Below are positions 10,284 through 60,317 of a DNA stretch of 64,000 bases, piece by piece; within the stretch, counting starts at the first letter, position 1, and each line of letters starts with the position of its first letter. The DNA is from Paraspadella gotoi (taxonomy: Eukaryota; Animalia; Chaetognatha). The position numbers were made by a program, and so were the translations under genes. The notes beneath the pieces are model-generated. The model was given only the letters and a program-made list of their open reading frames with translations, was not told the origin of the DNA and ran no database searches. The stretch spans positions 21,233,775-21,297,774 of the forward strand of contig CM119270.1 of the NCBI GenBank assembly GCA_051294375.1. Reading direction: 5' to 3'.

Positions 10284-11835
10284 GATGGATAGCTTGAAAA
10301 CTGTATCAATAATAGGAACACATAGTGATGAATATTTGATATTTGATATTTGATATTTGATATTTGATATTTGATAAATTCAGATAATCATTTTTTAGCG
10401 TTATTGCTAATTATAGTTAAAACTTTAAATAAAGCTTAAATCCTATTTCTTTTCAAATGATAATTTTTTTTACATAGTTTGAAATAAGCAAACAGAGTTA
10501 GAATTTATAAATGGTTAAAAGTTTCACAATTAAGGTATTAAGCAGTTTGAAAATAATCATTTATTGTTAAACTTTCGTTTTAAGGCATTGGAGGTTTCAA
10601 CCGCTCGGAATTTTAGCTTAGTTTCAGAGTTAATTCGATTATTACTGATTTATCGCACTAACCATTGTCCTAGCATTAATTTATAAAGATCATCCATTAT
10701 TGAATTTGACAACTGGAGTTGCCCTTTGTTTTTCTCTCAAAATCCTTTATTTCTTTTAGTTTCTCTTTGACTCTCGAGATGGCGACGACGAACAGATGAC
10801 AATATTGACTCAAACGAAGCCAAAAACTCTGGTGAATAATAAACGAGTGATGGGCGTCTCCATTCTTTTTATTCTACCTTATCTCTTTGTCTTTTTTTAA
10901 TTCCTCAATCAGAAAACCGCAACACAACGAACTAGTCTTCTTATTTAAACAGGTTAAAACTTATGTTAATTGTAATTCCAACTTTTGGATCATTTTTAGA
11001 TTTTTGTAATCATGTGATGCTAAAATCTGTTGCGCAATCTCTGTTCTTTTTCCGCAGGTGGAATTTTACGTAATTAACCCGCGCTGGAATTATTGTTGTG
11101 ACCAAATTTGACAAAATGCTCTCTTGAAGTTGTTCCCCGTTTCCACTTACGACGCCTTCTCGAGTAAATCTGGTTAATTTAGTAAGATTTAATCATTATT
11201 GACATTTTTGGGGAGATATATTGATCTATTGCAATTCTAGTTCCTCGGAAAGGGTTATGATCAGGTTAGGAATTTAATTACTCGTTTATTTTATACTTAA
11301 CTGCCGAAAATATCCCCCTGAAAATATTACATTGAAATTTTACCATATGCCCGGCTTACATGTGACCTTGTATTCTTAAAATCTCGGCTTTAACCTTAAA
11401 AAAGTTTATTCACGATGTTGAATTGCCAATTTTGGTATTAAGTTAGTCTTTATAGCTAGAAACGGTTAAAATTTAGCGTTTATTTTAATCCGGTTTAAAA
11501 TATTTGTTATTTCATGAATTAAACAAAAGTCAATAACGAATGACCCAAACATGCAGCAGTAATTTCGATAATAGTTAATGCAAATAATGGTTCTTCGAAG
11601 ATTAAAGATATCACCGCAGATTCGACTGATTCACCGAGATAAGATTGTGAGGTTGTGATTTGTGAAGATAACCGACTTGAACCTTAAACGAAGGGAGGTC
11701 TCGTGATTTTTTTATGGCTCCAATTCTGTGCGAATTTTTTACGAGCAGTCACTGCACTCTTAATTAGAAAGTGCTTCAAATAAACTGAGATATAACCATT
11801 TAAATTCGCTTCATTAAAGTAATAAAAGATTCTTA

Positions 11836-11979
11836 GGATAAATTTTACTTTCGCCGACTGCGGTTTTGGCGTCTTTTGAAAAACCATTTAAAAATATATA
11901 TTTTTTTTTTAAAAATTACCTAATAACCCTCACCACCCTTAACCCTAACCTCTCAGGTCGGCGAAAGTAAAAGTAACCC
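11836..11979. mobile_element. MITE with 23-bp TIRs and 8-bp TSD
   Basis: Left TIR GGATAAATTTTACTTTCGCCGAC; the right end reverse-complements to GGGTTACTTTTACTTTCGCCGAC. A perfect direct repeat GATTCTTA flanks it at 11828-11835 and 11980-11987. The interior has degenerate (CCCTAA)-like repeats. Confidence 0.85.
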
Positions 11980-12035: not shown

Positions 12036-14185
<2,150 letters not shown>

Positions 14186-15841
14186 TGTGGATTGGGGCTG
14201 GGGCTGGAGGAGGTGGAGATGCTGGGGTTGAGGTAGTTGGTGACACAGAGCTGAGCTGGTCAAAAGTCAGGGCCGCGTATTTTCAAGAGATTTATTTTTA
14301 TTTTTAAACAACCCGCAGTAATTCTTTTTTTTTTTCAATATAACAAATATTTAATTACAAAAAGTTTTTTTATTTTTCAAATGTTTATCTTCAAATTTTG
14401 TCTCTTTTATTTACCCCCCCCCTATTTCGCCTTGAGCGGTGAGAAAATAAACAGCTCGGTCAAATCAAAAGACGTGAATTTGTAATGTGACAATCCGAGA
14501 GAGTGAGAGAGAGAGAATGGGATCGTGAAAGATGACCCCTTTTGTGAAACCCGAGGCGAAAAAATGAAAAGCGAAGTCCCTTCAATTCAGTCACACTTAA
14601 AACTTTTTCCCGCTGCCGGTTTAGTTTCTTATTCATTATTAATTTTTTTTTAAATTGAACGTAATTTCGGCTCAACTGTTCCTTTTTTATTAACAAACGT
14701 TACTCCGTGTTAATGGTACGAGCCTTCTTATCGACACGTCGCTAATTTGCACTGAGGAAGGTTCAGTGAAAATGACGGATCCTCTTTTATTTAAGCGACT
14801 TCCAATTAAACAAGTTCTCGCTGTAATTTGTTTACAAATTGCCATGTCACAATTTTGTTATTGCGTAAACGAAAAAAAAAGTGGGGTGGATAAGAATTTG
14901 ATTTCAATATGTCGTCTAGGTTTAAATTATTAGTTTTCTTAACGAGTTTGTATTATTAACAAATTCCTGTTCTGTTCGTAACATCGGTTCAGGGGATAGA
15001 TTAGAGTTCGCTTGTAAACTGTTTCGTAAAAAAAATTTATAATAATCATAATATATTTTATATATCGTATCGCTATTTAAAAAATCGTTTTTTAAAAAAA
15101 ATATCACATTGACAAGTGTAACAAACTAGACTTGTTCATGAATATAAATTTCATTGGTTTCGTTCGCTTTCCGACAGCCAGTCAGTTGTAGGGTATTCTT
15201 TCTGGCTTTAACGAGTTTATCTTTCGTTTGTTTGTATACAATTCCACGTTCGATTTGTTTCTCTAAATTTTTATATTATTACCCCAATGAAAGATATTCA
15301 TGTACAGTGTTATATATTGTTAAATATATGGTTCACTTCGAGATCAAAAATTCCCCGTATTGAAAATTCCGAAAAAGGCCGAGTTAAACAGGATGTAAAG
15401 ATTTTTTAAATAATAGTTGGCTGTTGTGAAATTTGCTAGAAGCTGTTCCAAATCTTAACTTACGTGTTCACTATTTACCAACAAACTGCTCTTTAAATAA
15501 TTTGCTTATTTATCATTAAGAAAAATGTAAAAAAAATAGGTCGCCGAGAATGGATAAATGGAGAACATGAACTTAATCGATTTATTAAAATTATAAAAGC
15601 GAATGCAATCGAATTGGCTAATTGTTCTATCAACAATTAATTTGCCTTTCATTTTTATAGCTGGCGAGATAAAAAAAACTTTGGTTTACAATTGTGAACA
15701 AAATGCTAATGAAAGAAATCCATATAACTATAAAGTATAAAACAATTTTTGCTACCGGCGTTTCAACGGAGGGAGTAAAATGATTACTTAGCGAGAAGTA
15801 CTATTTTTTTAAAGAAATCGACTTTCGTTCATTTATATATA

Positions 15842-16120
15842 TGTGGATAAGGCGCTAAGTGGGCAGAAGATCCGTAACTTCTATAACCCCCTCTAGCAGA
15901 CATGGAACGGGTCCTGGGCTTGGAACCAGGGTTGAGGGTTTGCCACGCCCCCAAGTCGGGTTACGGCCGTCCTCACTCTTCCCGCAGGGTAGGTACCGGG
16001 TTGGGATTGAACCCGGTACCTAGTGGTCATGAGCTGACGGCTTTACTCAATGAGCCACCGGGTCACAACTGAAAGGGTCATGCTTATAGGCGGGGTGAAC
16101 CTAGGCAATGCCCGACTACA
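15842..16120 (-). mobile_element. Family A element copy 1: TG...CA ends, tRNA-like head, twister-like motif
   Basis: 279 bp; reads TGTAGTCGGG...CCTTATCCACA on the minus strand and is flanked by TATA/TATA. Contains an A-box-like TGGCTCATTGAG, a B-box-like GGTTCAATCCC and the twister-like core CCTGG-TTCCAAGC-CCAGG. Colinear with 18945-19219 and 28983-29283. Confidence 0.85.
15907..15985 (-). ncRNA. Type-P5 twister-ribozyme-like motif in family A copy 1
   Basis: Minus strand GCGGG-AAGA-GT-GA-GGA-CGGCCG-TAA-CCC-GA-CTTGGGGG..CCCTCAAC-CCTGG-TTCCAAGC-CCAGG-A-CCCGT. P5 is GCGGG/CCCGT, T1 is GGA/TCC, and P3 and P4 hairpins are present. T2 GC reads GA in this copy and GC in copy 2. Confidence 0.6.
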
Positions 16121-16627
16121 TATATGTCATTACAAGACTCTTGTCAAGAGATTTAGAAACTCAAAAGATGGAATCTAGTAGAACCGGATGGAATCAGATC
16201 GAAGACTCGAAGAAATCACCGAAATTGAATCAAACTTTCTAATTGGTCGAGACCCAGATGGAACCGTCCAATAGGCGGATGGCCTTCCTTACCTCTTACT
16301 CAAATTATATATATATGGATAAAAATTAATTATACTAACGATCTCCTCTGAATATAATGGTATTTTAGTAATCTTCCTTATCAATTTCAGATCTGTCAAT
16401 TTTTTTGAAAAACTTCCCATTAATTAGAATTTTTTATCTAGTGTAAATAAAATGTCAGAGATTTTAAGCGAGTCGGCATGCTATGCTTCTACTATCATCC
16501 CGCAAATAGTAACAGTCAAACGCTACGAGACAACGACGACGACGATAACGATGATAACGACGACGATAACGATGCATTCCCTTTCTACGTCATCGTCGTC
16601 ATCGATTCTCGATGCCCTTGACGGCCG

Positions 16628-17677: not shown

Positions 17678-19425
17678 ATGTCCGAATCGGAAGTGAAGGA
17701 ACGCGGCGGGTTCGCCAATTTTATCTACAATCCCGAGACGGGAGAAGTGTTCACCCGAACGCCGGCCTCTTGGGCCAAAATTGGCCTCTTTTATCTCATC
17801 TACTACTCGGGATTGGCCGCTTTTTTCGCGGGAATGTTGGCCATTTTTCTCTACGCTTTCACCGACGATAAGGCCCCAGGTGAGGACTCCTCGCTGCTCA
17901 CTGGTTTATGGTTTATGGTTTTGTCAGTTGCTGTTCTTTTTACGAGAAATACTAACTTATGTTAAAACATTAAAACTAAAAATACAGAAACACGATACAA
18001 ATTTAATACATGAAAAATTGTGACAAATGAACGAAACAAAATGACACAAAACATAATGAAACGAAACGAAAACGAAAGGACAAAGGAAACATGATTAGGA
18101 AATTAAAGGAAAAGAAAATCAAATCAAATCACTGAAATTAAAAATAAAACGTCTCATCTCCATAATAAACCTTATTTTTATTTAATTGTTTGTTTGTTAT
18201 CTCTATTTTTATTCTTCTTCGTTTGGAAAGGTTAAGATTTAATTTATTTTCAGATGACTAGTGATACTTTTTATATCAAATAAACTTTTCCAGTTTTGAC
18301 GGGCAATTACTGTAGTAAACCCTGTATCCGCATTCCTTTAGTTTTGACGGGCAATTACTCGGTGCTGCCTCAAAATCCTGGCATGGGATTTCGTCCGATG
18401 CCGGTGCTGGAGAAGACCCTCATTAAGTACAACATGCAGAAGGAGTCGACCTACAAAGAGTACATAGATCATATCCATTACTTTCTCAAGCCCAACGATA
18501 CAAGTATGTTGGGGAGGGAGAGAGAGATGGAGAGAGAGGGTAAAACAGCGAGAGAGAGAGAAGAGAGAGAGTCAATTATTTTTTTTGAGAGACTTTTTGA
18601 CAAAACTGAAAAAATAAATATTGAATAAATTAAAAACGTACTTTGTGTACTTTATGCACTTTATAAGATGGGAGAAATACGGTTTTAAAGCTCAACTAAT
18701 TTTTTTCTTTCTCAGAATATAATTATCTCGAGGGACAACGAACTTCGCAGTTCCGCGTGTGTGACACGAAGAACATGTCGGAGGCCAAACGCACTGACTT
18801 ACCTTGCAGATTCGAGGTAAGTTCGACTATTTAGTGTAAGGTTGATGATTAACTTTAAATTTGTCGTGGGCTGCATGTTCGTTTGTGTTTTGTTGAAATT
18901 AAAAAACAATATGAGAGGACTTACCTCACATCAACTTTTCGCCATGTAGTCGGGCGTTGCAATATCTTCACCCCGCCTATAAGCATGACACTTTGAGTAA
19001 TGACCCGGTGGCTCAATAGGTAACTCCCTCAGCTAATGATCATCAAGTACCGGGATCGATCCCCAATGCTACCTACTCTGCGGAAATCGTGTGGACGGCC
19101 GTAAACCGCCTTGGCGGCCTGGAAAACACTCAAGCCTGGTTCCAAGTCCCGGACCCGTTCAATGCCTGCTAGAGGGGGTTAGGATAGCACTCTTCAACCC
19201 ACCTAGCGCCTAATTCACTGCCGCACCTTTAACCACCCATCTCTCCCCCCCATCCACCCCCCCAAAGGTGGACAAAATGGAGGACGTCCAACAGCATTGC
19301 CTCCGCAAAGGAGATTACGGCTTCCACGACGGTCAACCTTGCGTCGTCGTCAAACTTAATAAGTTGTTCGAGTTCATCCCTATTCTTAAGGAGGGCACGC
19401 CGGATTATCTGCAGATTGAGTGCAA

Positions 19426-19465
<40 letters not shown>

Positions 19466-19719
19466 GAGAGCTCGCCAGAATATCTGCAGATTGAGTGCCA
19501 GGGTGAGAAATTAAAATTGAAATTGAAAAACGAAAGTGCGAGCTTTGGGCTTATACTTTAAACTGCCCTAAAAAGCTACCTTATCTTATCATTTGTAAGT
19601 ATTAATAGTTTTCTTTAGTTTTCATAAATGGTCCTGAAAAAATGATCAATTCTAATTTTCTAGTGGACAATAGGCAATGGGCTCTTTCCAACTCACAATT
19701 TAAGCAGACATTTTTGTAG

Positions 19720-19766
<47 letters not shown>

Positions 19767-20517
19767 ATTTGCTCTCTCCAACCCCGTAACTTACCAGGCG
19801 AACATCCCGCGGACGTAGACAACATTGGTCCGATCAAGTACTTCCCAAAGGACGGATTTGACATGACCTTCTTCCCTTACCTCAACCAACCTCGATATTT
19901 GTCGCCGCTGGTCTTTGTTCAGTTCGTGCGACCGCAGCCGGGCGTGCTCATCCAGGTCAGGGAATTGGGAGGGCTCGTCCGTCTGTCGGAATTTCCTGTC
20001 AGTCTGTTTGTCACTCCTCGGATTCTTCAGATTACCTCTTAATGTCGATTATTCTTCTGAGTGTGTATGTATGTCTTTTTTTTTTTCAGTCAGTATTCCC
20101 TGTCAGTCGATTTCGTCTGTCAGTTTTCAGAATCTTCATGTCCGTTTTTTTTTTTTGTGTTTGAGTGTGATTGAGTATTCAGTGTCAATCCATCTTTAAA
20201 TTATCTTTATCTGTCAGTCTGTCAGTCATTTTCTTAATCGCTCAGTAAACCTTTGGTTTATATCTGTATCAGTCAATATCCACGTCTCTCTGTCTCTCAG
20301 TCCGTCTTTTGTCTGTTAATCATTTTTCTGTGACTGTCCGTCCTTCCGCTCCTTGGTCGATTCGACAGTGAACATCACGAAAGCCTTGCCACTTGCTCGT
20401 TTCTTTGAACAGGTGGTGTGTCAGACAGTGAATGCTTGGAACATCAAGCAAAATCGCTACAGTCGCGGCGACGGACGAGTTCACTTCGAACTCATGATCG
20501 AAGGAAAGTCGGACTGA
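17678..20517 (+). CDS. ATP1B: Na+/K+-transporting ATPase beta subunit (nervana/ATP1B family), 295 aa; exons 17678-17879, 18342-18503, 18716-18816, 19268-19427, 19798-19955, 20413-20517
   Basis: Family motifs FIYNPETGEVFTRTPASWAKIGLFYLIYY (single TM), NPGMGFRPMP, YGFHDGQPCVVVKLNK, CKGEHPADVDNIGPIKYFP, FFPYLNQPRYLSPLVFVQF and GRVHFEL; six ectodomain Cys. GT-AG introns with consistent phases (888 nt). The paralog cannot be assigned. Confidence 0.95.
18945..19219 (+). mobile_element. Family A element copy 2, on the sense strand of ATP1B intron 3
   Basis: 275 bp, TGTAGTCGGG...GCGCCTAATTCACT, flanked by GCCA/GCCG. TATAA at 18978-18982, tRNA-like head from 19002 (TGGCTCAATAGG, GGATCGATCCC), and a twister-like region at 19080-19158 with GA>GT and AAGC>AAGT changes. 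Confidence 0.85.
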
Positions 20518-28982: not shown

Positions 28983-29283
28983 TGTGTACAAAGCGCTAAG
29001 TGGGCCGAAGATGACTATCCGCAACTTCTTTAACGCCTCTCGCAGCCATGGAATGGGTCCTGGGCTTGGATCCAGGCTTGAGGGTTTTCCACGCCCCCAA
29101 GGTGGTTTATGGCCGACATCACGATTCCCGCAGGGAAGGTACCGAGTTTGGTTTGAACCCGGTTTGTGGTCAATGGTCAAACCCACGTTTGTGGTCAATG
29201 GGGTCATGAACTTTACTTTACTCAATGAGGCACCGGGTAAAAACTAAAAGTGTCATGCTGAACTTAGGCAATGCCCGACTACA
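28983..29283 (-). mobile_element. Family A element copy 3 (more degenerate)
   Basis: TGTAGTCGGGCATTGCC...GCGCTTTGTACACA on the minus strand, flanked by AATG/AATT. It has an internal duplication of gtttgtggtcaatgg in the tRNA head, has lost the TATA segment, and retains the core CCTGG-ATCCAAGC-CCAGG. Confidence 0.8.
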
Positions 29284-33284: not shown

Positions 33285-33990
33285 ATTGCAATTGCAACTG
33301 TAGCATCAACGATTGTAATTGAATCTCACTCACGTTTCGCTATGCAATGTGATCAACGATTGTAATAATTTGCCATACGTTTGCTATTGCAAACTGTAGC
33401 ATCAACGATTGTTTTCAGAATCGCAGGCATCACGTTTGCTATTTGCAACTGTAGCATCAACGATTGTAATTGAGAATCTGCAGCATCACACGTTTGCAAT
33501 TGCAACTGTAGCATCAACAGCACTTGTAATTGATCTGCAGCTATCAACGTTTGCTATTATGCACTGTGCAATAACGATCTTGATAAAATGGAATTTTGCA
33601 GGCATCAACGTTGGCTATTTATCAACGTAGACATCAACGATTGTTACTTGGAATCTGCAGCATCAATGTTTCTAATTGCAATCTGTAGCATCAAGATTGT
33701 AACTNNNNNNNNNNNNNNNNNNNNNNNNNGAATCTGCAGCATCAACGTTTGCTATTGCAACTGTAGCATAATCGTTTGCAATTGCAACTGTAGCATCAAT
33801 AATTGTAATTTAATCTGCAGCATCAACGTTTGTAATTGTAACTGTAGAATCAACGATTGTAATTTAATCTGCAGCATCAACGTTTGTAATTGCAACTGTA
33901 GAATCAAAGCTTGTAATTGCAACCGCATCATAAACGATTGCAATTGTAACTGAGGCATCAACGATTGCGATTGCAACTGCAGCATCAATG
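33285..33990. repeat. 54-bp (2x27-bp) minisatellite spanning a 25-N gap
   Basis: Unit GCAACTGTAGCATCAACGATTGTAATT-GAATCTGCAGCATCAACGTTTGCTATT; gap at 33705-33729. The array recurs at ~44855-45585. Confidence 0.9.
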
Positions 33991-34118
33991 ATTTTCCGAA
34001 AATGAGTCACTGACAACGAAATCCATGATTCATTTCTTTGCAAAGAAAGTGACGCGCGAAGCCACTGAAAAGAGGAACGATTGAAAATCGTCGTTATCGT
34101 CGTCGTCGTCGTCGTCAC

Positions 34119-40532: not shown

Positions 40533-43500
40533 GAAATACTTGTCTGTCACGTGCATCAGCCTTTAATCTTTTGTCGCAAACATAAAAGGAATATGATGTG
40601 GTTTATTTCGGATGCAGTATCTTATCTCTGTCTATATAAGTCACCTTTCGGTCGGTCAGTCCGCTATGTCTGACCCCTAGGGTCGGTCACACTTACATTA
40701 AAATATGCCCACATTTTTTTGTTTTATTTTTTTATTCAGGAAAGCTTGTCCGAGGTACAAATAATCGCAAGAAAAATATACACATTTAACGAGAGTTTAA
40801 AAAATGAGAAAATAAATATCAGAGGATAAGAAAAATTTCTTTTCAACGAACGAATTCCTAGATCCTGCTTAATTGTGTACAAAGCGCTAAGTGGGGCCGA
40901 ATGATACTATCCGCCAACTTCTTTAAACGCCTCTCGCAGCCATGGAATGGGTCCTGGGCTGATCCAGGCTAGAGGGTTTTCCACGCCCCAGGTGGTTTTA
41001 TGCCGACATCACGATCCCGCATGGGAAGGTACCGAGTTGGTTTGACCCGGTCTTGTGGTCAATGTCAAACCCACGTTTGTGGCCAATGGCAGGGTTCATG
41101 AACTTACTTTACTCAATGAGCACCGGTAAAAACTAAAAGTGTTTTTTTCACCCCCCCCCCCCCCCCCCCCCCCCCCTGCTTGAACTTAGGCAATGCCCGA
41201 CTACAAATTATTCAGGTATAACCTTGAAGGTTAAAAATTTAAACCAATTAATCGTAAAGGTATTGGCAGATTACTTAATAAAACTAATCTTACTAATAAT
41301 TTTTGCCAGAAAATAAGGGTATTTATTTATCGCTAAAGTACTCGGGTAACAATGACTTTTTTCAATTCAAATCTCCGCCTCAGAAATTCTAAAAACTATA
41401 AAAGAATAAAAGGCGGGAATTCCGAGCAATGCGTTGTCAATAAATACAAATTACAATATATAAATACGTTAGGTTATTTCATAAAATTCCTAAGGAAAGA
41501 AAGTTCACTGCAAGGCGCAACACATTGGATGGACCGATCTTGTGAAAGATATGTCGAAAATGAACGAAATACTCGGCGATAACAAAAGTCACTTGTGGCG
41601 CAACACAGATATTATATTTTTCCGTTCATGTTTCTCCTTTTTTTTTTTTTGACAGATTCTGTTGAACATTTATTAGCCTCAAATCGTTTTTTATTTTTGT
41701 TTCATCTAACTCTACTGTTATTTTCTCTCTCTCTATGTCTCTCTTCTCTTCTCTCTTCCTCTCTTCTACTTATTTCATCTCTATTTTCTCTGCTATCCTG
41801 CTCTTCTCTTTGTTATTGTTTATGTTTTTCTCTTTTTATTTTGGTTTAAATCTTACTTTCATTAGGCACATATTAGTACGCACATAAAAAAAGAAGAGAG
41901 AGAGAGAGAGAGAGAGATGCATTGACCAGTCAGCAATCAGAGATTGCAAAAGGATCACAATTCTCATCAACGACTTTTCAATAGAATCTACAACATCAAG
42001 TGGATTCAGGCGCCAGCAAATCTCGTTCCACTTGTGCCGATTGCAATTTGCAATTGTATTCTGCAGCTCGAACCAAGTGCGGCGTGAATGGCCGACGCCA
42101 ACCAGTGACGCCATCCATTGCTTCCTGCAACGTTGCAATGACTGTGGGAGGGTTCAGACGCTGCCACCGCCGGCCACCACCTCCACCGCCGCCGCCAGCG
42201 CCACCGCTCCACGCCACTCGCCTGCCAGCGCCACCACCTCCACCGCCACCGCCAGGTTGCCTTCAAAACCGATCTCGCAAATTTTAGTTTATAAATTATT
42301 CAGTTTTTTTTTTTATATATAAAAAAAAAAATATATTCAAACGAAAAAAAAGAAGAAATTTCTAGAAGTAAAATTAAAATGAGTTAAAATATCTTAACCT
42401 TTAAGTTAAAATTTGAGCTATTTAAATAACGCTTCCTTAAAAGATCGAGAGTACATATATGACGAATGTTATTTCATATTTTTTCAATTAAAGTCACGAA
42501 AACATTTGAGTGTTTTATGTCTTATATATACTGTTTTTTATTTATACTTCGTCGAGAAAGAAAGAAGAGCTCAAGGGGAAAAAATACCAAGACTTGAGAG
42601 ACGAAATAGTCGTTTTGAGAAAGAGAGGACGGAGACAAGCCTGATAGAGACAGAGTCGTCCCCGGGTTTTTATGCCTCCGATTCTTTTATTCCTTTTGTA
42701 TTTATGCAAAAATTGCTTTCGCGTCACACGACAAGATCGTAAATGCGATTTCTCGTTTGGAAATTACTACGGGGAGGAACACACTCCGAGCAGGATATAA
42801 CAAACCTTCGAGATCGTTATAACGGAAAGAATAGAGAAAATACTCTGTTTCACCGTTCTCCAAAAGAAATACGAACACAGATATTCACACAGCATAATAT
42901 TTTAGCGAATTTGCGAAGAATGTCAGTTTCGTTTTAATAATAAAAGCCAAATCACAACTATACTGGTTTCCCTGTTTCTACCGGGAAAATAATTTCCAGA
43001 AGCGGAATTACATGAAAGTAGATTCACGGACACAAAGCTTCTTCGTGTTTCGTCACGCCTTACTTGTTATTTCCACTTTGGTGTCACCAGCTCACTCTCA
43101 CCTCACTTATCTCAATTTAATCTCACTTTACCCTAACTTTCCATTCGTCGCACATTCACCTCCAACCTCACTTCTCTCCCTTTATCTCAACTTTCTTCTC
43201 ACCTTACCGCAATTCCACTTATAAAAGTTGTACGAGCAATAAAAAATTACCATTCATTTAATAAATAAGCTATCTTGCTCTTGACTTTGGAACAGGCTTT
43301 GGCTGGCTTAATGGCCTCCTATCACTCTTACAATAATGACATAGCAGGTGCCTGCAAGCCTTTTCAAATCAAGACTCTCTCACAATCTAGTTTAATTCAC
43401 TTGTGCAAAGTACTATTTGCTTATTTGTATTAATGCTAGCTTGAATAATAATTTATTAAACTGGTTTTAATGATACCTGACCTTCCATTTTTCGCCTCAC

Positions 43501-55346: not shown

Positions 55347-58300
55347 TCATCTGACGAAGGACGTCAAGGGGGCGTGGCTCGTCGCAGAATGGACGCCGGC
55401 CGCTTTGACTTTGGACGGGGACACGCCCACATCGCGAAGACAGAGTCCGGTGCGAGATTGGAATTGCTCTTTGCAGGTGGACAGACCTGATAGAGAGGGA
55501 GACGGGGGGGAGAAAGAGGGAGAGAGATGGAGACGGGGGGAGAGAGAGGGGGGTGTGGGAGGAATTAAATTATTATTTATTATGATTATTATGATTATTA
55601 TTATTATTATTATTATTATAATTATTATTATTCGAGACTTATAAAAATTCATATAAATGGAGCTGAAAAATTTAACAATATCTTCTCAAGATGACTGTTA
55701 TTATAATGTATTTACATCTTATTAAGCTTTTATTTCTCAACGTATACAGAGAACGGTGCCGAAAGCCAACGGGAGATCATAATGAAAACGGAAGGAGCAC
55801 GAAGGGATTCTCTTAACGAAGTTCGATTGAAAACAAAACGGAGAAATGATAAGCAAAACAAAGGGAAATAATTAGCAAAACAAATAAAAATAAAAACAAG
55901 ATAATTAAGCAGAAAAAAAGAACTAACAGAAATACCAAAAGAAAATCGGGGAAATTATCGAACCAGAAAAAAAAAACTTGTTTCGATCGATAATGATTTG
56001 TTAATCTTTTTTTTATCTCGATTTATAAATCATTCAATTCAATCAATCAATCAGTCAATCAATCAATCAATCATATCAATCATATCGGTCGCGACAAAAA
56101 CTCGTTTTTTTACTTGACAACCATGAACCAAAAAAAAACTTTGGATTTTCATTTGAGCCTCAAAAATGTCAACGACGTAATTTGATAATTTTTTTGTCAA
56201 GAACGAACGATCGAAACCAGAAACTTGTATAATTAAACTTTTCTTAACAATTTCAAGTTGGTCTACAGAAAAATTATTGCATTAATTGAAATAGTACTAG
56301 ACAGTCGAGTTACTTAGATATAGATTAGAATAAATTAGTAATAACTACTAACGGTCAACGGTCAATAAGAAACCTAATATCAAAATGGAGTCAACGAAAA
56401 TAAAGTTCAACACAATAAAATTGGGTCGAACTATTTCATCGTTCAATTGTCATGAAATAAAGACGAAATATGACACGAATCTTTCGTTTCAAGTTTAATT
56501 CTTGCATCATTCCTGATTTCATTTCGTTTGGCAAACAACGCATAAATACACGTGTCACTAGAAAAGAATTAACGATCTCTGATAAGAAAGCTTAAGGCCC
56601 CTGAATGCAAGGGTACTGACACACCGAAGTTGGGATTGGCCAGCGATCAACACTCTTGGAGTGAAAGAGAGAGAGGAGTGAGAAAAGACCGTTAACCGCC
56701 ACGTGGTTGAAAAAGAACAAGTTGATTGACCGATTAAGTTGACAATATTTAAACAAAATTGCAATCTTTACAAGGCCTGTACAAAATATTCAAATACTTT
56801 TTTTAATGAAGAAACAAAAAACTACGGATACAATCAGGCGGGATAAATTAAGCAAAATTATCACTACAAACTTAAGCCCCAAAAAATATTTAAAATTGAC
56901 CAATTATTTAATAAAATTCACTTATTCGTATTTAAATTAATGAATTCAAGATTAATAAAAACAAAATTACTTGAAAATTGAGAAGTAAAAGCCAAATTGC
57001 CAAAATTACCCCCAACTCACATAAGTAGGAAAAATCGATGCGTGGTCGGTCGGTCAACCCACTGATCTGGTTTGATCCAATTTTTAGCCACTTAAAGCAA
57101 AACGGACAGAGAAGGCGGGCAGACGGACGAACGGACGAATAGACAGACCTCGTGGACTTTTGCCAAACTTAAAACTCATAACAATATATAGTTTAAATTG
57201 ATCCCACGAAGAGGTCCCAAGAAATTTGCCAACGCCCAACGCAATCAATCAATCAATCGATCAAGCAATCAATCAAGCACATTCGTTAACCCCGATTCTC
57301 TCGACGGTGGTTGTAAACTAAATCTACTGTCTACTCCAATCAATCGACAGACTACCAATCAATCAATCAATCCGACTCACTTGAAGGTGGTTGTTCCCTG
57401 ATTGGCGACGCCAAAGGCGACGACGACGGCGAAGACGAGTTTGAGATCGCGTTGTTGCTGCTGCTGCTGCTGCTGCTTCCGCTGCTGCCGCCGCTGCTGT
57501 TCGGTCTAGGCGATGAGGACGGACTCAACTCGATTCCGGAATCGTCGGACGCGAGAAACGCCGTCTCTCCGGCGCCGGAAGACGTCGCCCCGCGAAGCCG
57601 AGCCGTCGGTTTCTCCGGCGTCAACGCTCTCGAAGCCACGCCGCCCGATTTAGAGTTTGCCTTCGCCGCCGCCGCCGCCGCCGCCGCCGAAGACGCCAAG
57701 GACGCCGACGTCGCCGCCACGGAAGACGCCGGTTCCGTCTTGGACGCCAACATGTTTTCTTTCTCGGCGCCGAAAAGACAGCAGACGCTGCCTTGTTCTC
57801 CGATGCGATAAGCGACATCTGCGGGATCGATCCACAGCGCCATCTCGACGGGGAGGAAACGCCGAAGGAGGAATTCCGGGATGCCCGCTCGACGGCCCAC
57901 CTTTGGAGAGAAGGGGGGGGAAATGAAATAACATACGTTTATATCAATTCGACTTTTTTGAGAAATAAATCATTTAATATGTATATATCGTTTCAGAACT
58001 GTGGTTTGATATCAATTTGTTTTTTTTATAATCTTGTTTTTTTTTGTTTTTTTTTGATCAAGTGATGATTTTGAATATTTAGTATTTAGTTTTCAATAAG
58101 CGTTTTCGTTAATTTATGATTACCTTCGACGTCCATACTTTGTGCAGCAAGAGGAGATTTGTAGCAAACGACATTTTACCATTTACCATTTTTAGTATTT
58201 TCATTTTATATTATACTATGGTATAATATATGTATATTATATATTATATATATTATAATATATATAATAACTAATGGTCACCTTGAGCAAAAGCGGATCC

Positions 58301-58527
58301 ACTTTTCCGTTCATCGATTGATTGATGATGCAACGATAGCCGCTCCCTCTTAAAGGATGACCCGGATGCCAGTGGCCGCGGAAACGATCGTGCAACGTCT
58401 GACGAAGCAGTCGACCGAATTCGTCCACTTTGTCCACGTTGATGGATTGACGTCCGTTGTAGGCGTGGCTCTTCGATCTTAGAAAGTCGGACAAGAAGCG
58501 AACCGCAGTTTCAATTTCGTCTATCAT
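55347..58527 (-). CDS. BTG: BTG/Tob-family antiproliferative protein, BTG1/2-like, 301 aa; exons 58527-58282, 57900-57381, 55486-55347
   Basis: MIDEIETAVRFLSDFL...; box A FRGHWHPGHPLRGSGYRCI; KVDPLL; box B LPVEMALWIDPADVAYRIGE; box C-like QGSVCCLF. The C-terminal TCKEQ...SPSK resembles the BTG1/2 tail. GT-AG introns in phase 0 and 1 (246+520+140=906 nt). Exon 3 is less certain than exons 1-2. Confidence 0.9.
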
Positions 58528-58538
58528 CTTGGAGGCCG

Positions 58539-60317
58539 TGACGTCATCAAGATATGGGCGTGGAGAATGGTGGACGAGTGTGGGCGAGTGTGGGCGCGCC
58601 CGGGTTTCTGTGTGGAGAGAAGTGTGGGCGATAGTGTGTGGAGGAAGATATTTTTGTTTTGTTTTGAGAGTTCGTTTTATTTTTTATTTTTTTTTTTTTT
58701 TTTGTAGTTGAGAGGAAATTTTTGGAATTGATCGCCTAAAGTTGTCCGTCGGTCCGTTTTTGTGTGAGAGAAATATATGGAGAGAGAGACAAATATTTGA
58801 GAGAATACAGCGTTTTTCGTATAATTTGGTTTTTTTTTCTGAATCCACGTTCGGATTAAAAGTGTTTTTCGATTTTTTTTTAAATGTGTTTCGGCACAAA
58901 GAAAAAAATTATATAAAAAAGAAAATCGGAGATGAAGGAGCGAATTTTATTTTTTTGGATGCGTGGATGAAAAAAAAAAGAAAAACATTGGGTAATGATT
59001 TTTGTATTTAATGTTTTTTTTTTTTTTTTCAATTTTTTTTTAGCAAAAAAAAATGTTTTTTAATGATCTGTACACTAAGATCTAGAAGCGTCTTTGTCGA
59101 AAGAGGCTGTCGGGACAAAGGGCGGAATGTGGAAGGCTGAAGAGAGATGTAGAACGATACGTCTCTCTCTCTCTATCTCTCTCTCTCTTTCTCTTTCTCT
59201 CACTCTTACGACGTCACTGACATAATGATCGAGAACGGACAAATCAGCGAGGAGGAGCTCAACCAATGAGAGAAGAGGCCAGGCCACGTCAGTCCCTGCA
59301 TCGGGCAGAGCGTCGTGTTTCTATTATGCTTTGCCAGGCCGACGGGCTGCTGCCGACAGCTGATATCATGAGATGGGTTATGAAAGGGACACGGATATTA
59401 AAATTAAATAAATGTTAAAAAAATATTAAATATAAAAAAATAATGTATAATCGTAAGGAAGAAATACATATTTCAATGTCAATCAAGAAAATGTTATAAA
59501 GATTTTTACAAAAATGACATTTTATGAATTTAATTTAATTGTTCAATATAAAATTTTACTGTGTTTATTAAATATAAATAATATATGACTTTATTAATTT
59601 ATTTTTTTAATTTAATTATAGTATCATGGTGGACTAAAATCCACCAACATATTTTAGTTCACCATAATATATTAGTTTTTATGATTCTTACGAAATATCC
59701 GAGTTGCCTCTTTATGTTCGTTCGACCCTTTTCTCTCTTTTCTAAACGTCCAACGCAAATGTTAAATCCTTTTAATTCTCTATGAAAAAGTGTCTGACGA
59801 TTTCGAGAAAGATCCAGACTGCAGGAGGATGCCGCTGCAGGACGCCGCTCGAAGCACGGCGACGCCGAGCGACGCCGCCCGTCGCCGTACGCCGCTGCTG
59901 CGGTGGAGAAAGAAAGCAAAAACGAGAAAGATTAAAGAAGAGAGAAAGAAAGAGAGAGAGAGAGAGAGGGTGAACATTCACCCCTTTTTTCCATTTTTTT
60001 TCCTTTCTCTGAAAATCCTCAACGCTCCTTTCTTTCACTCTCTTTGAATAGGGTTGTTCTGCAGGCACTGTTTGCCCAAGCTGTTTCGGTCGAGGAAAAC
60101 AAAGAAAAGAAAGACTTTCTCTTTGTGCTCTTTTTTGCACCTTTTTTTTTCTTGCAATCTTGATTGGATTTTTCTCTGAGCGCAAAACATTTTTAAGCTG
60201 CTTTTCAGTTGACGCTTGCAAAAAAAATAATTTGCAATGTGACAAATTAAAAATATTAAAAGTAAGAAAAGTAAATTTGAATAAATAAAACGAAGCTTTT
60301 GAAAAACTTCCACGTCA
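58539..60317 (-). promoter_or_regulatory. CRE/ATF-like sites and a CCAAT box upstream of BTG
   Basis: TGACGTCA at 58539-58546, CGACGTCA at 59209-59216, CCAAT at 59263-59267, CCACGTCA at 59284-59291 and 60310-60317. Motif matches only. Confidence 0.4.

Follow-up and report, generated by a model that had tools for sequence, protein, structure and literature searches.

A 64,000-nucleotide stretch of the genome of the chaetognath Paraspadella gotoi (contig CM119270.1, positions 21,233,775 to 21,297,774 of the forward strand; hereafter the window) contains a 279-bp repeat on the minus strand at 15842..16120, which is probably a solo long terminal repeat (LTR) of the Helenus type (TRIMp3). The element carries a tRNA-derived head with RNA polymerase III (Pol III) boxes and, 3' of this head, a motif that from its letters is very likely derived from a twister ribozyme. 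This motif is what is new compared with Helenus, since the rest of the architecture has already been published. That the element is a Helenus-type solo LTR and also bears a working ribozyme seems, on what can be read from the sequence, a little short of an even chance. Its status as an LTR is based on its termini, its target site duplication (TSD), and its likeness to Helenus.

Copies in the window share fixed ends

BLASTN with copy 1 detected three further copies inside the window.

15838..15841: 4-bp flank TATA on the 3' side of copy 1
15842..16120, minus strand: copy 1, putative solo LTR, 279 bp, TGTAG...CCACA, with depth steps and loose ends at both termini
16121..16124: 4-bp flank TATA on the 5' side of copy 1
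18945..19219, plus strand: copy 2, 275 bp, flanks GCCA/GCCG, sense in an intron of the Na/K-ATPase beta gene, twister motif decayed
28983..29283, minus strand: copy 3, 301 bp, flanks AATT/CATT on the element strand, insertions and deletions in leader and head
about 40874..41205, minus strand: copy 4, a duplicate of copy 3 with the same flanks, within an assembly duplication

Copies 1–3 all begin with TGTAGTCGGG (TGTAG in three of three) and are 77–86% identical in pairwise comparison. Their flanks are unrelated to each other, which indicates that they are independent insertions. Copy 4 is not independent because it shares the flanks of copy 3 and sits in a tandem duplication of ~12 kb (87–90% identity, bounded by N gaps). 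An earlier note on this DNA had reported three independent copies of 275–301 bp with an identical start and CACA or CACT ends, and the coordinates and the alignment agree with this report. They also agree with its statement that the copies lack an A-rich or tandem tail, as no tail was present at the 3' end of any of the three. The TG...CA ends that it proposed were recovered as TG in all three copies but as CA in only two; the 3' ends are CCACA in copy 1, TCACT in copy 2, and ACACA in copy 3, so that copy 2 terminates with CT instead of CA. Similarly, the leader described upstream of the tRNA head is kept, whereas the TATAA reported within it is found in copies 1 and 2 and is absent from copy 3.

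The 4-bp flanks on the element strand match at four of four bases in copy 1 and at three of four in copies 2 and 3. At least three matching bases at the same spacing were found in 6.7% of 63,254 4-mer pairs of the window, and with this background the chance that all three insertions match is about 3e-4, a value that concerns three insertions only. Flank matches at the chance level, which the earlier note had named as speaking against its proposal, were not observed for these three insertions.

Both ends of the element fit TGTNR. The accessible part of the description of Ginger1 and Ginger2 (PMC2836005) gives TGTNR ends and a 4-bp TSD for these DNA transposons, and the copy 1 site fits the Ginger2 preference RTATAY given there. 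These features, together with the failure to see an internal region, would suit a non-autonomous Ginger-like transposon with a captured core of a short interspersed element (SINE) and without any LTR biology. However, the terminal inverted repeats of Ginger are 40–270 bp long according to the same part of that source, whereas the inverted match between the two ends of the element is 3–5 bp, and neither site preference of Ginger is matched where copies 2 and 3 are inserted. We consider such a transposon improbable.

Contigs of public sequencing runs reveal an abundant family

Nine public sequencing runs contain the stretch, and contigs of four of them were compared with the element. Those fitting it numbered 7363, 6806, 2199, and 532. 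In run X1 the summed contig depth, which is not equivalent to copy number, was about 100–250 in the left flank, 0.3–1.5 million inside the element, and ~460 just to its right; the steps from about 250 to over 170,000 at 15842 and to ~460 past 16120 coincide with the termini. Contig depth and the three independent copies in 64 kb show that the element family is very abundant. Loose contig ends accumulated at 16120 (111, 108, and 52 contigs, agreement 0.38–0.39) and at 15842 (15 contigs in run X5, agreement 0.40), and this low agreement indicates that many different flanks are joined at the same two points. The depth of the leader nearly equals that of the head (0.72 versus 0.9–1.3 million in run X1), which indicates that the leader is a regular part of the unit. 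Where the depth dips close to the 3' end, many contigs have six bases that are missing from copy 1, and the loose ends at this dip run on into the same terminal sequence. A family-specific 30-mer had no match in prokaryote genomes and viral contigs.

The element resembles Helenus LTRs

Kojima (2024) described Helenus elements, which are terminal-repeat retrotransposons in miniature, from six animal phyla; tRNA boxes lie inside their TG...CA LTRs, the animal members have 4-bp TSDs, the primer-binding site (PBS) is of the gypsy type, and families known only as solo LTRs were accepted (PMC10886601). Nearly all animal Helenus LTRs examined in the accessible part of the supplement start with TGT and end with ACA. 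In its features the element resembles them: it has TG...CA ends and an LTR size within their range, its LTR contains A and B boxes but no functional tRNA, it occurs as solo LTRs, and it has a 4-bp TSD (from three insertions only). It differs in the position of the tRNA part, which in most of the animal LTRs examined in that part of the supplement is near the 3' end and is followed by a T-rich tract, whereas in the element ~150 nt with the twister-like motif and without a T4 run follow it. The preference for a solo LTR over a SINE, expressed before this analysis, is supported by the ends fixed in four public runs, the kept leader, the missing tail, and the 4-bp flank matches. However, the type of element that the earlier note proposed, non-autonomous, from an animal, and with a tRNA cassette in an LTR and a 4-bp TSD, is already published as Helenus/TRIMp3 (PMC10886601).

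The word "twister" does not occur in the main text on Helenus, and "ribozyme" occurs only in a reference title (PMC10886601). In the accessible part of the supplement "ccaagccc" was not found and 13 matches to "ccaagc" had no twister context, where line breaks can hide a motif. A literature search, with most subscription journals and Repbase outside its coverage, did not turn up any LTR described as containing a twister or any Helenus element described as containing a ribozyme, and the accessible parts of PMC10085705 and PMC13570524 contain nothing on the combination of twister and LTR.

The LTR retrozymes of plants, as described in the accessible part of Cervera 2016 (PMC4918200), resemble the element in the presence of a ribozyme in an LTR of roughly 300 bp, the 4-bp TSD, the dependence on gypsy, and the solo LTRs. 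Their RNA circles were shown experimentally, and the circle model allows solo LTRs as direct products. They differ in host and in ribozyme, which is a hammerhead, and no tRNA cassette is mentioned in that part; an Rfam scan detected no hammerhead in the element, whose motif is twister-like.

A tRNA-derived head is followed by a twister-like motif

All parts of copy 1 lie on the minus strand and are given here from 5' to 3' of the element.

16065..16120: leader of 56 nt upstream of the tRNA-like head, putatively U3-like, with TATAA at 16088-16084
15990..16064: tRNA-derived head, A box 16057-16046, B box 16013-16003, no cloverleaf
15907..15985: twister-like motif on the 3' side of the head, with type P5 as the preferred reading
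15985-81/15911-07: P5 in the type-P5 layout
15974-70: GAGGA
15969-64: palindromic P1
15963-61: UAA, with the predicted cut between 15963 and 15962
15960-58: P2
15957-56: T2
15955-31: P3
15930-13: P4/L4
15842..15906: remaining 3' part of the LTR, ending with CCACA and without a tail; a second GAGGG at 15893-15889 allows an alternative reading as type P1

In element numbering TATAA is at nt 33–37 (copies 1 and 2), the A box (TGGCT) at nt 64–75, and the B box (GGTTC/GGATC) at nt 108–118, and the tRNA part lies 56 nt inside the 5' end. The B box of copy 1 is located in a 13-bp hairpin (16022-15990). ARAGORN found no tRNA gene, and the tRNA part could not be folded as a tRNA. A run of four T is absent from the element strand of copies 1 and 2 and occurs twice in that of copy 3, in the leader. 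The boxes suggest that the element may be transcribed by Pol III.

When copy 1 was compared by eye with the Rfam twister-P1 consensus, UAA, a three-base P2 strand, the T2 position, a 7-bp P3, and P4 were recognized, and the L4 loop agreed with the consensus at 9 of 10 positions. In copy 1 pairing fails at T2, at the closing pair of P3, and at the first position of P2. A pairing letter makes up 99% of the X1 depth at 15956, 99% at 15931, and 92% at 15960. With these family-majority letters L4, P4, T2, the UA cut site, the G before T1, and the T1 pairing are all present by inspection. The L4 triplet UCC is exactly complementary to the upstream GAGGA, a double change from CCC and GAGGG of the consensus; the three-pair register of T1 follows the env22 pairs. 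P5, a stem of 5 bp that closes beside P4, and P4 itself are present in the minimum-energy fold, and UAA is kept in all three window copies. The other variants at ~10% or more in the motif are in the P3 loop (15939, 15942, 15946) and the P2 bulge (15977), those at 15984 and 15960 keep a wobble or standard pair, and two of the variants at this level are CpG sites.

P1 would consist of a single intramolecular pair or, between two molecules, of an 8-bp palindromic duplex with an energy of −16.3 kcal/mol in copies 1 and 2 and −8.9 kcal/mol in copy 3. P1 is dispensable for twister (PMC5408937), and for animal retrozymes the accessible part of PMC7229834 states that their hammerheads can be active in dimeric form. 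Self-cleavage by the motif is plausible from its sequence.

With majority letters, a type-P1 layout, in which the downstream GAGGG is used, would have three Watson–Crick pairs in P2, and a P1 of 4 bp could form. However, it would place five extra bases between P2 and the catalytic G, and ~14% of the X1 depth alters this G (15893). We ranked the type-P5 layout, which was chosen with the variant data in view, above type P1 as the best reading of the letters.

Similar modules in SINE-like repeats and the case against a working ribozyme

A pattern of a B box plus twister L4 was searched for in other sequences. It was absent from viral contigs and occurred at 56 loci in metagenome contigs, none of which was a family member by BLASTN. 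Four of the 56 are animal-repeat-like and match Rfam twister-P1 at 24–44 bits; the other 52, which look prokaryotic or like chance matches, were set aside. In each of the four, which are SINE-like, a decayed twister of type P1 comes after a tRNA head.

L012:1121-1330
L016:1480-1760
L022:547-860
L003:1481-1605

L012 and L022 start at the tRNA head, their upstream flanks are not shared, and they end with short repeats. A twister is also located at the 5' end of the non-LTR element Perere-3, according to the accessible part of PMC8501958. As far as these sources extend, Perere-3 and the repeats L012, L016, and L022 resemble the element in carrying a twister in a retroelement and in tolerating a reduced P1, and differ from it in being non-LTR, in the type-P1 layout, and in having a TSD beside the cut site or tailed 3' ends.

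These repeats bear on two other explanations. The first is a SINE mobilised by a long interspersed element (LINE) and endowed with an unusual transcribed leader; abundance and size are SINE-like, and the combination of tRNA and twister is known from SINE-like repeats. The exact ends, the missing tail, the 56-nt leader, and the 4-bp flank matches argue against it, and the start of L012 and L022 at the tRNA head, their unshared upstream flanks, and their short-repeat ends are unlike the element. A 5' end at the tRNA head, a tail, and TSDs of variable length, as in tRNA SINEs, were not found in the element, and we regard a SINE as very improbable.

The second concerns the motif. The behavior of the module in L012 and L022 shows a way in which an LTR could acquire a twister as a mere passenger. 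The element could accordingly be an ordinary Helenus-type solo LTR in which the twister-like part is the inactive remainder of a tRNA-headed SINE inserted in an ancestral LTR, with normal strand transfer. SINE insertion was indeed proposed by Kojima as the origin of Helenus (PMC10886601), and L012, L016, L022, and L003 show a tRNA head and a decayed twister-P1 at similar spacing. The short P2 and the lack of covariation among the three copies also fit a passenger. On the other side, no catalytic or pseudoknot letter has a variant at 10% or more beyond the breaks of copy 1, the T1 partner departs from the consensus on both sides, and UAA, lost in the SINE-like examples, is retained in three of three copies of the element. 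This conservation counts only weakly against a passenger because a young family looks conserved without selection. A passenger origin is possible, although we lean against it.

Several results weigh against a self-cleaving LTR element. Modules of a tRNA head and a decayed twister occur in ordinary SINE-like repeats, where the motif can be a passenger. No Rfam match reached the gathering score; the best was a partial Twister-P5 match of copy 1 with 16.2 bits versus a cut-off of 37.6, and copy 2 had no twister match. P2 comprises 3 nt with 2–3 pairs versus four in the twister consensus, and the P1 stem of a twister is not present either. No pair changed on both sides among the three window copies in either layout, the type-P5 and type-P1 layouts were alike in pairing (82.7% versus 81.3%), and the fold energy was no better than that of shuffles (z −0.47). 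A loose core descriptor speaks for a twister in that it matched two of the three copies (1 and 3), as against 54 hits among 180,000 simulated sequences, but it had been loosened after the copies were seen and misses copy 2. The TSD is perfect in only one of three copies, where it lies inside a (TA)n run. None of the three window copies has a PBS or polypurine tract (PPT) beside it or an internal region. Finally, no joint of an LTR end to an LTR start was among the joints listed (15 of 120), which is weak evidence that short two-LTR forms are rare. The twister claimed in the earlier note is plausible: the motif is twister-like by inspection but has a short P2, a score below the Rfam cut-off, and no compensatory change. 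The 4-bp TSD is supported by flank matches that exceed chance, although the duplication is imperfect in copies 2 and 3.

An apparent hammerhead occupies the same place in gall-wasp Helenus LTRs

In the accessible part of the supplement of PMC10886601, the consensus LTRs of Helenus-2_SyJa and Helenus-2_SyUm from gall wasps contain, by eye, a type III hammerhead that adjoins the tRNA head on its 3' side. The ribozyme is apparently intact, since its three stems, its cut triplet, and loops complementary to each other were recognized; the main text of that paper does not mention it. These elements have 277-bp LTRs, an interior of 485–487 bp, a PPT, 4-bp TSDs, and a tRNA-Trp PBS in common with a gypsy element (PMC10886601). 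They thus appear, by sequence, to be complete animal LTR retrozymes. The order of leader, tRNA head, and self-cleaving-type motif and the 4-bp TSD are as in the P. gotoi element, whereas the ribozyme is a hammerhead instead of a twister and an interior with PBS and PPT is described.

A possible replication cycle

The element is likely a solo LTR left by a Helenus-type miniature retrotransposon that is non-autonomous and probably mobilised by gypsy, and whose masters would self-cleave. A master copy would consist of two LTRs around a short PBS/PPT segment. Pol III would start near LTR nt 57, and the twister in each LTR would cut near nt 158, possibly after the two palindromic P1 segments on a single transcript have paired with each other. 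The monomer with 5'-OH and cyclic-phosphate ends would be ligated into a circle, in which the LTR would be continuous again, and the reverse transcriptase and integrase of gypsy would copy it and integrate the product, generating a 4-bp TSD. Solo LTRs would result from recombination between LTRs or straight from the circle, following the proposal made for plant retrozymes. The complete scheme, namely a Pol III-driven animal LTR retrozyme with a tRNA promoter and a type-P5 twister whose cutting requires that the palindromic P1 segments of two LTRs pair, giving RNA circles and a flood of solo LTRs, with the gall-wasp hammerhead as an independent origin of the same design, is tentative and in our judgment rather doubtful as a whole.

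Alternatively, the element might spread as a single LTR-sized circle without a separate internal region. The very high abundance and the finding of solo copies only would fit such a replicon, and the retrozyme model in the accessible part of PMC4918200 permits solo-LTR cDNA from a circle. However, a lone copy would provide one cut site, and its Pol III transcript would lack the leader. Moreover, the ends used by integrase are normally made by PBS and PPT priming. An LTR-only replicon is thus quite improbable.

Surroundings of the element

Copy 1 is about 1.5 kb upstream of, and antisense to, a Na/K-ATPase beta-subunit gene (17678-20514, plus strand, six coding blocks). A moderately repeated sequence (16156-16250) adjoins copy 1, with a depth ~10x that of the left flank. 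A gene of the BTG/Tob family with at least two exons is located at 57370-58683 on the minus strand. The window also contains large direct and inverted duplications of 83–93% identity with N gaps between them (26600-38350/38377-50343, 1633-3725/5264-7339, and 1-1630/10285-11795), which probably stem from haplotypes that were not collapsed or from gap filling with error-prone long reads. Another short interspersed repeat forms an inverted pair (11823-11928 and 13699-13804, 79% identity) with an internal inverted repeat and CCCTAA-like units, which we take to resemble Helentron-associated repeats or miniature inverted-repeat transposable elements. A 27-bp tandem array (33286-33993) can be read as a Cys/Asn-rich repeat in one frame and has no Pfam match.

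Significance

In the accessible parts of PMC4918200 and PMC7229834, LTR retrozymes are described from plants and with hammerheads, and animal retrozymes as tandem repeats without LTR, PBS, or PPT. An LTR element transcribed by Pol III faces the problem that its transcript starts inside the LTR, so that it needs a defined end and the rebuilding of its leader. If the proposed cycle is true, a ribozyme in each LTR and circularisation would solve this problem. The presence of two different classes of ribozyme at one and the same position in animal Helenus LTRs that are unrelated would then represent convergence, and the twister would have a second role in retroelements besides that in Perere-3. 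If the motif is dead, the element is one more Helenus family of modest importance. If the motif still cuts, the family would be copied via RNA circles, a route for LTR elements that has so far been described only in plants.
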